64,000 bases of DNA from Promethearchaeota archaeon (GTDB taxonomy: Archaea; Asgardarchaeota; Lokiarchaeia; Sigyniarchaeales; SOKP01), in contig JAEOUA010000006.1 of assembly GCA_016839555.1 (NCBI GenBank), positions 128,001 through 192,000 on the forward strand, read 5' to 3'. The notes below the pieces were generated by a model. It ran no database searches. It saw nothing but the letters and a program-made list of their open reading frames with translations, and was not told where the DNA came from. Below, one piece after another: positions 10,491 through 31,249 of this stretch; the stretch's first letter is position 1, and each line of letters starts with the position of its first letter. The position numbers and the translations under genes were made by a program.

Positions 10491-11255
10491 ATTAATTCTG
10501 ATCGAGACATTGTATTATTTTATTATTATTCCTCTCCAAGTTTTCCACAAGATTGTTTTTTAAATTTATCTAGGGATATTGCATATAGAAATATGTTTTT
10601 AACTAGATGTAATGATGGAAAAATACATTTCGAATTTCCAATATTTGAAGATCATTCCTATAATTCGATTTGCAATATACGTGGAGTGAGAAATCTTATA
10701 AAAAGAAAAATAAATAATAAGTACATACTCTTTAGAACAAGAGATCAAGATATTAATAAAAATTATATTATAGGATATTATAAAGTTGGTAAAATATATT
10801 TTCAAGAAACAAGAATGTTCAATAATAACGGTTTTGTGTGTGGATTTGAATCTTCTGAAACAAAACTCCTTAAAAAAGGTCAAATTATATATAATGACCC
10901 TACTTTTAGACGAGGACATAATGTATCATGGCATAAGAAAGAAATAAATAAAAAATTAAACAATTTTTTAGATATGATAATAAATATTAAAGACGATTAT
11001 AGTTCAATCTATAAGAATGATACAAATCGGATGATTGAAATATTTAAAGATAGAGAGAAAATTAATGAATGGAAAAATAAATGCCAAAATTGTAAAAAAA
11101 AGGAAGAATGTTTTTTCTTTAAATATAATGAAAAATATGATAAGAAACATGAAACTCAAAAAGATCTTTTTAAGTTAATATTTAATGTTTATGATTCTAA
11201 TATATATTCAAAAAATATTCTAGATAAAATTCAAAAAAAATATATATCGTGTTAA
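10491..11255 (+). CDS. Hypothetical protein, possibly a nucleotide-modification-associated (Nmad-like) domain
   Basis: The frame is open from 10485, upstream of the listed ATG at 10593 (IVLFYYYSSP...); P.FE..SY...C....R, YILFRTR, YIIGYY pattern; family assignment is tentative. Confidence 0.5.
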   Translation: MNSDRDIVLFYYYSSPSFPQDCFLNLSRDIAYRNMFLTRCNDGKIHFEFPIFEDHSYNSICNIRGVRNLIKRKINNKYILFRTRDQDINKNYIIGYYKVGKIYFQETRMFNNNGFVCGFESSETKLLKKGQIIYNDPTFRRGHNVSWHKKEINKKLNNFLDMIINIKDDYSSIYKNDTNRMIEIFKDREKINEWKNKCQNCKKKEECFFFKYNEKYDKKHETQKDLFKLIFNVYDSNIYSKNILDKIQKKYISC

Positions 11256-11446
11256 AAATTATGGGTTTAAAATGTCAGAAATGTGGTAATATATTAAGTG
11301 GATCTGATGGGCTTCACTTATTATCTAAATGTCCTAATTGCGGAAATAATGATATCAGTCTATTTATACGTGTAGATGATCAAGATATTGATCCAAAAAA
11401 ATATAAAAGAGATAAAGAGTGGTTAGAATCTCGATTAATAGATTAA
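11249..11446 (+). CDS. Small zinc-ribbon protein
   Basis: CQKC...CPNC; overlaps both neighbouring genes. Confidence 0.7.
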   Translation: MLKIMGLKCQKCGNILSGSDGLHLLSKCPNCGNNDISLFIRVDDQDIDPKKYKRDKEWLESRLID

Positions 11447-12528
11447 CTAATAATATAAAAGAATTAAGTATAGAGCTGACTCATAAGTGCGCATTAAATT
11501 GTGTTTATTGCAGTAGCGAGTCAAATTTAGAGAAGTCTACATTTCTTAATTTGAATAGAATAAAGAAAATTATTGAGGAAGTAATAGAAAAATTCAATCT
11601 AAAAATTATATCTCTCTCCGGAGGTGAAACATTTCTCTATCCCCACTTTAAAGAATTAATTAATTTTTTAAATGAGAAGGATTTAGAGGTTATAATTTAT
11701 ACATCCGGTATAATTCTCGATAATTCCTTGAATCGGAGAAGTTTATCAGAGGAAATTTTAAAAGTTCTCTCACCTTATAAAAAAAATACTAAAATCGTTT
11801 TAAATATTCAAGGACATAGCAAAGAATTAATAGAAAAAATAAATAAAGTACAAAATTCTTTTAATTTAATTCAGAATTCAATATTGAAATTAATAGATAA
11901 TAATTTTATTTTAGAAGCAAATATAGTGCCTTTTAAATATAATTATAAATATATTAAAGAAATCACAAATTTTTGTCTTCAAAAAGGTTTTAAAAAGATT
12001 AATTTTTTACGATTCGTCCCTCAAGGAAGAGGAAATAAAGAATATTTGTATAATAGTAAAAAAGAATTCAAAAAAGTAATTCAAGAACTAGTATCTCTAC
12101 TTAAAATTAAAAATATGAAAAATAAAATAAGAATTGGGCATCCAATGAATTTTTTATTCCTATTAAGTGAATCTAATTTATATGATATTGAAGAAAATCA
12201 TTATTGTAGAGGAGGTTTTGATGCTCCTTTAATTTTACCTAATGGAGACGTAAGTATGTGTCCAGCATGGAAAAACCTTAAACAATTTAGTGCTGGAAAC
12301 ATATACGATAAAAATTTCGAAGATATTTGGTTTTCTAAAAATTTTGAAATATTTCGTAATTTTATCAAACAAGGATATAAAAATCTCAAGGAACCTTGCC
12401 AAAATTGCAACTATTTAAATGAATGTAGAGGCAAGTGCGTTGCCCAAAGAATTTTAAGCAAAAATAGTGAATCGTGTGATTTAAAAAAAATAATTTTAAT
12501 TGCTCCTGATCCCCAATGCTTCAAATAA
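11419..12528 (+). CDS. Radical SAM protein with SPASM domain
   Basis: CALNCVYC, SGGE, YCRGG...ILPNGDVSMCP, CQNCNYLNECRGKC. Confidence 0.93.
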   Translation: MVRISINRLTNNIKELSIELTHKCALNCVYCSSESNLEKSTFLNLNRIKKIIEEVIEKFNLKIISLSGGETFLYPHFKELINFLNEKDLEVIIYTSGIILDNSLNRRSLSEEILKVLSPYKKNTKIVLNIQGHSKELIEKINKVQNSFNLIQNSILKLIDNNFILEANIVPFKYNYKYIKEITNFCLQKGFKKINFLRFVPQGRGNKEYLYNSKKEFKKVIQELVSLLKIKNMKNKIRIGHPMNFLFLLSESNLYDIEENHYCRGGFDAPLILPNGDVSMCPAWKNLKQFSAGNIYDKNFEDIWFSKNFEIFRNFIKQGYKNLKEPCQNCNYLNECRGKCVAQRILSKNSESCDLKKIILIAPDPQCFK

Positions 12529-30179: not shown

Positions 30180-30552
30180 TTTGCCAATTTAATATATTTA
30201 TAATTATATCTATTTAAAAGAAAATTCTTTGATCTTTAAAAACATAGGATATGACTGGTTTAATAATTTATTTTGAGCGTTTACTTAAAAAATTTTATTT
30301 TTTTTTGATTTTAAAGATAAATTTCTTCGAGGGGTTTAAAATACTTAATCTAAATATTTTAATAAAATTAATAAGGGAGGATATGAAAGAAACATATATG
30401 GTTATAAAAGAGGATAAAATTTTACTTAAAATCAGAAAAAATTCTGACAAAAAATATATAGACTTAGGAGAAAGAGGGAGATTTTGTGTTCATAATAAAT
30501 TAAATGATTTGACAGGAAAAGAGTGGATTAAATTCACTAAATCATGGTTTAT
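29605..30552. repeat. 59-bp imperfect inverted repeat (29605-29663 / 30494-30552) inside the two methyltransferase genes
   Basis: Includes a 29-bp perfect match TGGATTAAATTCACTAAATCATGGTTTAT (30524-30552 vs reverse complement of 29605-29633). Confidence 0.85.
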
Positions 30553-31249
30553 ATTAAGACCAAAACAGCGAGATGAGGAAGTTATCCTACATCCTGCCAA
30601 ATTTCCTGAAGTACTGATTAAAAAATTCATCCTTTTCTTTACAAAAAAAGGGGATAGGGTATTGGATCCTATGGCTGGGACAGGTACGGTAAATTATGTT
30701 TGTGAGAAATTTGGAAGAATTGGATATTCAATAGAATTAGAAAAAAAATATTATGAAATTGGGAAAAAAAGATCTAATCAACATTTCTTCTTGGGAGATT
30801 GTAGAAATATCAAAAATTTTGATATTCCCCCCATTGATTATATAATAACATCTCCGCCTTATTGGGATTCTTTAAAAAGAAGTTCAATACGTCAAAAAGA
30901 AAGAAAAAAGAAAGGACTGGATACAGAATATTCCTCTAAAGATAAAAATTTTGAAAATATAGAGATTTATGATGATTTTTTAAAAGAATTAGTTATTTTT
31001 TATAAAAATTTAAAATCTTTACTTAAAAAAAAAGGATATTTAACTATTATAGTTAATAACATATATAAGAATAGTAGATTATATCCATTAGCTTTTGATC
31101 TTGCTTCTAAATTAGGAAAATATTACATATTAAAAGATGAACAGATTTGGTGTCAAGATGATAAGCCTCTAATCCCTTTAGGAGTTAATTCTGCATATGT
31201 TGGTAATAGACATCATATTTATTGTCTAATCTTTAGAAATGGAATATGA
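30383..31249 (+). CDS. Amino-DNA methyltransferase (SPPY), paralog of 28845-30179
   Basis: HPAKFPE, DPMAGTGT, TSPPYW; ATG 30383 follows GGGAGG and is preferred over 30251. Confidence 0.9.
   Translation: MKETYMVIKEDKILLKIRKNSDKKYIDLGERGRFCVHNKLNDLTGKEWIKFTKSWFILRPKQRDEEVILHPAKFPEVLIKKFILFFTKKGDRVLDPMAGTGTVNYVCEKFGRIGYSIELEKKYYEIGKKRSNQHFFLGDCRNIKNFDIPPIDYIITSPPYWDSLKRSSIRQKERKKKGLDTEYSSKDKNFENIEIYDDFLKELVIFYKNLKSLLKKKGYLTIIVNNIYKNSRLYPLAFDLASKLGKYYILKDEQIWCQDDKPLIPLGVNSAYVGNRHHIYCLIFRNGI

Follow-up and report, generated by a model that had tools for sequence, protein, structure and literature searches.

We describe a BREX locus of an Asgard archaeon that lacks the usual self-marking enzyme, and in which adjacent, exchangeable methyltransferases and a guanine transglycosylase (TGT) probably mark the cell's own DNA instead. 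The established BREX marks are, to our knowledge, adenine methylation in the PglX types and phosphorothioation in type 4, and marking by TGT is no more than a prediction, made for BREX-Related Capture (BRC).

Gene content of the locus

An ORF check of the window, the whole 64,000-nt stretch of DNA analysed, located every core, convergent and upstream gene of the original prediction. The features are as follows.

10593–15296, + strand: four-gene cassette (220-aa unknown protein, radical SAM/SPASM protein, double DUF2284 protein, 552-aa protein with a DEDD-like motif)
15892–27008, + strand: seven-gene BREX core (wHTH protein, small ATPase, BrxC, 268-aa protein, PglZ, short BrxL, 194-aa protein)
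15892–16752, + strand: 286-aa tandem winged-helix protein, first core gene; likeness to BrxA limited to position and fold class
16756–17427, + strand: 223-aa small P-loop protein in a BrxB/BrxF-like position; Pfam AAA-type matches below or near the cut-off
17414–20878, + strand: BrxC-like ATPase, 1154 aa; weak PADLOC BrxC and SspC matches (BrxC, E 6e-5)
20886–21692, + strand: 268-aa conserved unknown protein, between brxC and pglZ; no family in Pfam or PADLOC
21700–24963, + strand: PglZ, 1087 aa (PF08665, 33.8 bits, cut-off 25)
24979–26409, + strand: short BrxL, 476 aa (PF13337, PF20442; TIGR02688, 375 against a cut-off of 329)
26424–27008, + strand: 194-aa stand-alone protein with the DNA-recognition fold of BrxA, SspB and type IIS enzymes, from a structure model
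27031–28269, − strand: short archaeal-type TGT, 412 aa from an ATT start
28272–28823, − strand: DUF6884 protein, DpdC/YaaA-like (PF21818, over the cut-off)
28845–30179, − strand: SPPY amino-methyltransferase, 444 aa (PF01555); FxGxG precedes SPPY; internal PIP-like motif
30383–31249, + strand: paralogous SPPY methyltransferase, 288 aa (PF01555), in divergent orientation; no PIP motif
31372–32568, + strand: 398-aa type IIS-like PD-(D/E)xK nuclease with a recognition domain; conserved PD...EVK...Q motif

The intergenic gaps in the core operon are, in order, 3, −14, 7, 7, 15 and 14 nt; its end lies 22 nt from the stop of the convergent TGT gene, and the methyltransferase-DUF6884-TGT operon has gaps of 21 and 2 nt. 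As predicted, no large methyltransferase lies between brxC and pglZ, the ORF there being that of the 268-aa protein, and a PAPS reductase is likewise missing, PF01507 having no match in the 92 %-complete genome, in the locus or in the homologous loci. No ORF of the locus encodes PglX, and the best NF033452 match, elsewhere in the genome, scored 133 bits against a cut-off of 500. A split pglX elsewhere was considered and rejected, since the 1214-aa methyltransferase ca. 54 kb upstream has a 1060-aa partner of its own. Searches of Pfam and PADLOC found no family for the 220-, 268-, 286-, 552- and 398-aa proteins, and a promoter scan of the locus gave signal at chance level.

Alignments showed that the metal-binding motifs of PglZ (DCLR, SDHG and HGG) are conserved, that BrxC has both Walker A and Walker B intact, and that the 223-aa protein retains Walker A, with a Walker B aspartate that varies among homologs. 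PglZ is the probable nuclease effector. PF19557 gave faint or weak matches on homologs of the window BrxC, which HHalign paired with the BrxC of BrxP-bearing type 4 loci at 96 % probability. BrxL lacks a Lon or HKD tail, an architecture typical of type 4, and groups with BrxP-bearing type 4 loci with a support of 0.89 (FastTree; all trees were rooted at the midpoint or on a single outgroup, and their only support values are SH-like). The model of the 286-aa protein is of low confidence (pLDDT 55.7) and its top structural matches are generic wHTH proteins (Z ≤ 7.8), a quality too low for assigning it to BrxA. The 268-aa protein is possibly a split-off BrxC tail, from its position and length; HHalign found no significant match between it and BrxC tails.

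The 194-aa protein was modeled with a pLDDT of 92.6, and the model was most similar to PaqCI (Z 9.8, 183 aligned, rmsd 3.6), followed by BrxA (8.3), FokI (7.7) and SspB (7.0), Z-scores of 7–10 being moderate. The DUF4007 Pfam profile had no match in the locus, the model being similar to BrxA and SspB but more so to PaqCI, and Foldseek at E 0.001 returned nothing for this or the 286-aa model. By HHalign, the 194-aa protein is also homologous to the 398-aa nuclease, over the C-terminal half of the latter (94.7 %, E 6e-8). The modeled fold suggests a candidate specificity subunit. The nuclease itself, for which the atlas leads were NucS/AlwI at 0.82 only, lies beyond the range of the original prediction and belongs to the cassette of marking genes, which it accompanies in the neighbourhood comparison, being missing from several loci.

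The 444-aa SPPY methyltransferase probably acts on N4-cytosine, judging from its motifs. The start of its paralog is likely at 30383, on the basis of a ribosome-binding site and homolog length, the longest ORF starting at 30251. A PIP-like motif occurs in eight of nine long methyltransferases and in none of the short ones; at the C-terminus of TGT it occurs in 8 of 15 close homologs, versus 1 of 251 background windows. In both proteins these motifs are candidate PCNA-docking sites.

The most likely start codon of the TGT is the ATT at 28269, which gives 412 aa, close homologs having 413–417 aa. Contigs from three sequencing runs, all of one study and one possibly from the source sample, agree on this codon with no alternative letter once short joints derived from other organisms are left out. 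The enzyme keeps the catalytic residues D91 and D261, the zinc site and a preQ0-type Val-Pro pocket, and is devoid of the C-terminal tRNA-binding domains (archaeosine TGT profile, 71.8 bits against a cut-off of 350). Its best solved relative is an archaeosine TGT; PADLOC DpdA did not match it and gave E 1.6e-4 with a 60 % homolog. The adjacent DUF6884 protein matches PADLOC DpdC (E 1.5e-8) across ca. 65 residues and is a candidate preQ0-to-ADG converter. Elsewhere, the genome contains queC-queD-queE, a 543-aa full-length archaeosine TGT and ArcS. A viral collection yielded one TGT relative, 49 % identical, in a locus with no BREX match.

Recurrence and exchange of the marking genes

Six close cores (BrxL 64–73 % identical) were informative, their downstream DNA being readable: those of the window, L021, L022, L023, L025 and L216. 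All are headed by a homolog, ca. 50 % identical, of the 286-aa protein, and all have a homolog of the 268-aa protein, weakly matched also in two distant cores, G242 and G183, whose BrxL is ca. 33 % identical to that of the window. The expectation that TGT and DUF6884 would be repeated neighbours of pglX-less cores was borne out: TGT faces the core in five of the six, the exception being L023, and each of the five contigs that extend far enough carries the long methyltransferase. L023 faces the methyltransferase pair alone, with no TGT, DUF6884 or 398-aa nuclease. Among close cores the 194-aa gene occurs exactly where TGT does; it is absent from L023 and, thus, not universal. The distant core G242 has the pair, TGT, DUF6884 and a stand-alone recognition domain, and G183 has the pair and a 194-aa homolog, with no TGT, DUF6884 or 398-aa nuclease adjacent. 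In the family of the window's genome (135 genomes) the pair was found only in that genome, G242 and G183, always beside a short BrxL.

The original prediction allowed that close homologs might normally carry pglX or brxP; none of the examined cores carries either, and the variant without these genes is recurrent, not a single loss event, in a small sample of eight informative loci, which are only partly independent of one another and lie for the most part on short metagenome contigs. The same family also contains canonical PglX-type loci with a long BrxL (G185 and a second locus of G183), which form a separate lineage.

The marking cassette is exchanged between restriction machines. L021 and G242 share a TGT and long methyltransferase that are 94–95 % identical, with BrxL 34 % identical, whereas L021 and L025 have BrxL 95 % identical and TGT 71 % identical. 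The cassette also adjoins Lhr/DpdJ-like, Z1/DUF4420 and NurA-HerA modules, and the window's TGT clade was also found at loci without BREX. In the helicase locus L024, TGT and DUF6884 have no methyltransferase within 10 kb, so that TGT can exist apart from methyltransferases.

Proposed mechanism and its alternatives

We favour, as an evenly balanced judgement, a type 4-like BREX with N4-methylcytosine as its probable self mark and an optional 7-deazaguanine layer, that is, a restriction machine with marking and recognition outsourced. From their motifs, the SPPY pair would methylate cytosine N4 on both strands of an asymmetric site, with PCNA as the docking clamp for one of the two enzymes. The short TGT, likewise docked on the clamp, would add an optional second layer by putting preQ0 in place of guanine in DNA, and DUF6884 may turn this preQ0 into ADG. 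The 194-aa protein, given its fold, would read the site, replacing the recognition role of PglX in type 1. By analogy with type 1 BREX, BrxC, the small ATPase, PglZ and BrxL would assemble on unmarked DNA, which PglZ would nick, and the 398-aa nuclease would be a parallel reader belonging to the cassette. The observations behind this scheme are gene content, recurrent linkage, reassortment, folds and motifs, function being inferred throughout. More tentatively, N4-methylcytosine and 7-deazaguanine might form a dual mark put down at replication by PCNA-docked enzymes and read via a detachable BrxA/FokI-fold specificity subunit, which would make the cassette pluggable into BREX, helicase or type IIS machines.

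The original prediction proposed a TGT-installed self mark. The linkage of TGT and DUF6884 with the core recurs; the role of TGT as the mark is weakened, because L023 and G183 are complete cores that retain the methyltransferase pair and have no TGT, and because no core with TGT was seen, among those examined, that demonstrably lacks methyltransferases. It is thus, in our view, unlikely that a TGT-made 7-deazaguanine (dPreQ0 or dADG) is the sole or main mark read by the core, with the methyltransferases serving the 398-aa nuclease. Such a role would agree with a TGT that faces the core directly at G242 and at five of the six close loci, with the 194-aa gene tracking TGT among close cores, with the recognition domain that faces TGT in the Z1/DUF4420 locus and the related stand-alone one that shares an operon with TGT in G082, with the intact active-site and preQ0-pocket residues (PMC10164549), and with the BRC precedent (PMC12839542). 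Nevertheless, L023 and G183 keep the pair without TGT, DUF6884 or the 398-aa nuclease, G183 has a 194-aa gene and the TGT clade was not found in its genome, and no DpdB-type ATPase (PF14072) was found in the genome search.

The genes could also be mere island neighbours: the methyltransferases and the 398-aa nuclease could be a complete type IIS system independent of BREX, TGT and DUF6884 a separate marker, and the core a brxP-less type 4 derivative, markless or decaying. Defence islands gather unrelated systems, and the region is such an island, with a GC content of 22–25 % versus 29.5 % and additional restriction-modification genes; the BrxL affinity to BrxP-bearing loci and the many different machines joined by the cassette would also fit. 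However, we judge this improbable: the core genes are intact and conserved among loci that are 63–95 % identical, the tail-to-tail junction is shared by two unrelated BrxL lineages, the core operon itself has a gene related to the nuclease's recognition domain, and the methyltransferases stay beside the core where the nuclease is absent.

Participation of the core in writing the mark, with BrxC as an ATP-dependent loader like DpdB for DpdA or MtsA for MtsC in MANTIS, is very unlikely. The missing DpdB would be in line with it, as would the larger complexes required for type 1 BREX methylation (PMC11341690), the ATPase required for methyltransferase loading in MANTIS (10.64898/2026.09.23.753747) and a free-standing BrxC ATPase domain next to TGT at two loci; yet the Walker A of this free-standing domain is degenerate, TGTs of the window's clade are also found apart from BREX, and the PIP motifs offer a BREX-independent path to DNA.

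Least credible is a further modification of the inserted base by the radical SAM operon, which adjoins the core in the same orientation and whose double DUF2284 gene occurs in only two genomes among the 154 of the order, G242 and that of the window, both carriers of the TGT cassette; the intact operon of G242 lies on a different contig, amid metabolic genes and at least 23 kb from both ends, two further homologous operons have neither BREX nor TGT nearby, and no homolog was found in BREX/TGT loci, where the close cores show <1 kb upstream. The operon is, therefore, a separate cassette, contrary to its predicted membership of the system; its radical SAM/SPASM and double DUF2284 genes have family matches, as claimed, and the DEDD assignment reduces to a motif with no family match. 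One homologous operon is near an HMUDK_hel gene, which is associated with base modification.

If the favoured N4-methylcytosine reading holds, small stand-alone methyltransferases, with or without deazaguanine, would be a third or fourth BREX mark chemistry, and the core would uncouple marking from recognition. The earlier question of whether BrxA-fold proteins confer sequence specificity (PMC9240713) becomes testable with this locus, where a BrxA-fold gene has homology to the recognition half of the nuclease nearby. The TGT layer would represent chromosomal 7-deazaguanine marking of DNA in archaea by an enzyme nearer to archaeosine TGT than to DpdA, of which the literature searched contained no experimental report.

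Relation to known systems

PglZ and BrxC place the locus in the BREX superfamily. The original prediction saw a mixture with type 3-like parts, a label that is not needed, since BrxA/BrxB-like genes are common to all BREX subtypes and DUF6079 is the top match for all BrxC (PMC12839542); moreover, BrxXI and BrxHII are absent from the locus and BrxL is present. The core is closest to type 4, with which it shares BrxC, PglZ, a BrxL without C-terminal extension and, tentatively, a BrxA/SspB-fold protein (PMC12839542), its BrxL being sister to those of BrxP/cysteine desulfurase loci in the sampled tree. It differs from type 4 in having no PAPS reductase or desulfurase, in its separate small ATPase and 268-aa genes, and in carrying SPPY methyltransferases and TGT in place of the phosphorothioate apparatus. 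BrxP is present in 89 % of type 4 taxa, and loci of this kind may be listed as type 4 without BrxP (PMC12839542). With type 1 the core shares the order wHTH, small NTPase, BrxC, PglZ, BrxL, but it has no PglX and its BrxL is short.

The cassette resembles type IIS restriction-modification systems (PaqCI, FokI and BpuJI folds) in having two amino-methyltransferases and a nuclease that carries a FokI-like recognition domain; in contrast to these, the recognition domain is also free-standing within the BREX operon, TGT and DUF6884 are included, and the nuclease is missing at several loci. As in Dpd systems, there is a TGT-fold enzyme with both catalytic aspartates and a preQ0-type pocket, next to a DpdC-like gene (PMC10164549), in a genome with preQ0 genes. 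However, the window TGT is nearer to archaeosine TGT, keeps N-terminal strands that DpdA lacks and has a PIP-like tail, and DpdB is missing, as are DpdD–K from the ORFs of the locus.

The pairing of PglZ with TGT was already proposed computationally for BRC, which has PglZ, BrxC-like, BrxA-like and STAND NTPase genes with TGT as the proposed marker (PMC12839542), and TGT is linked to PglZ and BrxC in the window as well. Unlike BRC, the locus has no GNAT and no HerA/FtsK, which is universal in BRC (PMC12839542), the closest PF01935 match on the contig being ca. 200 kb off; it adds BrxL, methyltransferases and a long PglZ with a C-terminal extension, as well as a DpdC-like gene, reported to be absent from BRC (PMC12839542). 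A DUF87 gene does lie upstream in one homologous locus.

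Gene content and recurrence of the BREX core

The window (C5:128001–192000) belongs to a 92% complete Asgard archaeal genome of 3.74 Mb, and the stretch carrying the locus has a GC content of 22–25%, compared to 29.5% genome-wide. A gene-by-gene check confirmed the originally predicted BREX core, ending in brxL and a gene for a 194-aa protein, and a facing cassette containing genes for a TGT, a DUF6884 protein, and a long and a short SPPY methyltransferase; a gene for a 398-aa protein past the stated range also belongs to the cassette. The Walker motifs of BrxC and the metal motifs of PglZ are intact, and BrxL is of the short form. 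The sequence from brxL through the TGT gene is identical letter for letter in public contigs, including the ATT start of the latter. A profile search gave no PglX match above the cut-off, and we found no PAPS reductase in the 92% complete genome, no DpdB-like gene and no HerA near the BREX locus.

We traced the neighborhoods of close BrxL homologs (64–73% identity). Contigs L021, L022, L025 and L216 repeat the core, the 194-aa gene and the facing TGT, followed by DUF6884 and the long methyltransferase wherever the contig extends; in L023, which lacks TGT, DUF6884 and the 194-aa gene, the same core faces a methyltransferase pair, and L108 stops after brxL. The TGT clade of the window was found in five of 400 Asgard genomes. 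G242, the only other genome of the window's family with this clade, has a core only about 33% identical, yet its TGT again faces brxL. G183, also with a distant core, has a homolog of the 194-aa gene and a methyltransferase pair, but no TGT. Since neither pglX nor brxP appears in any of these eight loci (window, L021, L022, L025, L216, L023, G242 and G183), simple loss in the window is not supported and the proposed variant stands; more distant BrxL loci do have BrxP with a desulfurase, or large methyltransferases. BrxL genes adjoin large Eco57I-like or PF01555 methyltransferases in L110–L128 and L151–L188. In L008 (G069:C258), two convergent cores (BrxC-PglZ-short BrxL) meet at their tails, and the space between them contains no marker gene; a stand-alone BrxC ATPase domain with degenerate Walker A lies beside DUF6884 or TGT in L001:14717–15706 and L022:12128–13129.

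By its defining genes, the locus falls outside BREX types 1, 3 and 4, BRC and Dpd; its working would resemble that of type 4, with the phosphorothioate module replaced. The PglZ-TGT pairing was already proposed for BRC (PMC12839542), which lowers the novelty first claimed. Our literature search found no paper describing the present gene set. The gene arrangement is well supported; the mechanism is predicted.

The TGT cassette and its mobility

The closest solved relative of the window TGT is archaeosine TGT, with whose catalytic D95 and D249 its D91 and D261 align, as does V205-P206 with the preQ0-selecting V198-P199; the zinc site is retained. It lacks the tRNA-binding tail, and tRNA pathway genes lie elsewhere on the genome; its substrate is very probably DNA. 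Its start is apparently ATT at 28269 (–), 2 nt past the DUF6884 stop, the triplet being confirmed in contigs from three runs of one study, and its homologs, named ones being from Promethearchaeota, Loki- and Helarchaeota, begin there with ATG or GTG. A PIP-like pattern, defined here from the established PCNA-docking consensus, ends eight of 15 close TGTs versus one of 251 background windows, and is internal in 8/9 long methyltransferases and in none of the short ones. The DUF6884 protein is YaaA-related, with weak DpdC matches.

Between L021 and G242, TGT and the long methyltransferase are 94–95% identical whereas BrxL is only 34% identical; the TGT of a Z1/DUF4420 locus is 89–91% identical to both, and L021 and L025 share 95% in BrxL and 71% in TGT. 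One clade of the TGT tree intersperses BREX-linked copies with others linked to Lhr/DpdJ/DruE-like helicases. These mismatches and the interspersed tree indicate that the stable unit is the marker enzymes plus the recognition-domain protein, attached to different restriction machines. That core and cassette are only unlinked neighbors is unlikely, the facing arrangement being repeated in G242. Several loci are flanked by queCDE genes or a Vut_1 transporter. The cassette adjoins the helicase clusters in L024, L105, L106, L107, L045–L050 and L199, which may be an undescribed archaeal Dpd-like system. More distant TGTs accompany NurA, HerA and a 1400-aa P-loop protein (L058–L083, L098), and in L198 (G014:C13) two TGT paralogs lie in tandem alongside a methyltransferase gene, an AIPR gene and a nuclease-recognition fusion.

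The proposed mark and its putative reader

All BREX loci whose sequence extends far enough have the methyltransferases, two of them without TGT and without nuclease; TGT is frequent but dispensable. For these reasons we favor methylation as the mark needed by the core, at about even odds. By an established motif rule SPPY points to N4-cytosine methylation, and the methyltransferases are predicted to be of this type. The TGT product as main self mark, the original proposal, agrees with the frequent facing of TGT and core, but is improbable given the two loci that keep methyltransferases without it; that the core assists in writing the mark is very improbable. The SPPY family is present in 103/400 Asgard genomes, mostly without BREX, and several copies within one family of genomes have in-frame stops.

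PglX provides recognition in type 1, and a core without it therefore needs another reader, for which the 194-aa protein is a candidate. Over most of the protein, its confident structure model matches PaqCI, BrxA, FokI, N.BspD6I, SspB and BpuJI, all but BrxA being known BrxA relatives, with short wHTH matches ranking below PaqCI/BrxA/FokI-type ones. In a profile comparison it also matched the C-terminal half of the 398-aa protein encoded past the methyltransferases, whose N-terminal half bears a PD-(D/E)xK motif, and one distant homolog is a nuclease fusion of the same kind. In the position after brxL, G242 encodes that C-terminal half as a stand-alone protein; in the core of genome G397, the gene there specifies an AlwI-like domain and precedes one related methyltransferase.

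The radical SAM operon and surrounding genes

The radical SAM operon is a rare, conserved four-gene unit in its own right (rSAM/SPASM, double DUF2284, 552-aa and 220-aa proteins):

Window 10593–15296 (+), four-gene cassette
L191:14430–19244, four-gene cassette
L195:3603–8595, four-gene cassette

Its assignment to the BREX system was not supported, as homologous operons occur away from BREX and TGT: two other contigs carry it without either, and the G242 copy is surrounded by metabolic genes on another contig. Hypermodification of the base by its products is the least probable reading. Among 154 genomes only that of the window and G242 have the operon, which a shared mobile gene pool would explain. 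An HMUDK_hel gene close to one of the copies hints at nucleotide modification.

Further defense genes surround the BREX locus. Window features include:

5260–6177, RmuC
8335–10095, NACHT-like ATPase with C-terminal helix-hairpin-helix
33406–34737, DUF6932/Pol-beta nucleotidyltransferase
35388–39329, separate R-M system of the island: two PF01555 methyltransferases (489 and 383 aa), then a TdeIII-type endonuclease
39583–53387, TPR protein (1066 aa) and three to four unknown + strand genes, the last Schlafen AlbA_2, facing a 1605-aa UPF1-like helicase
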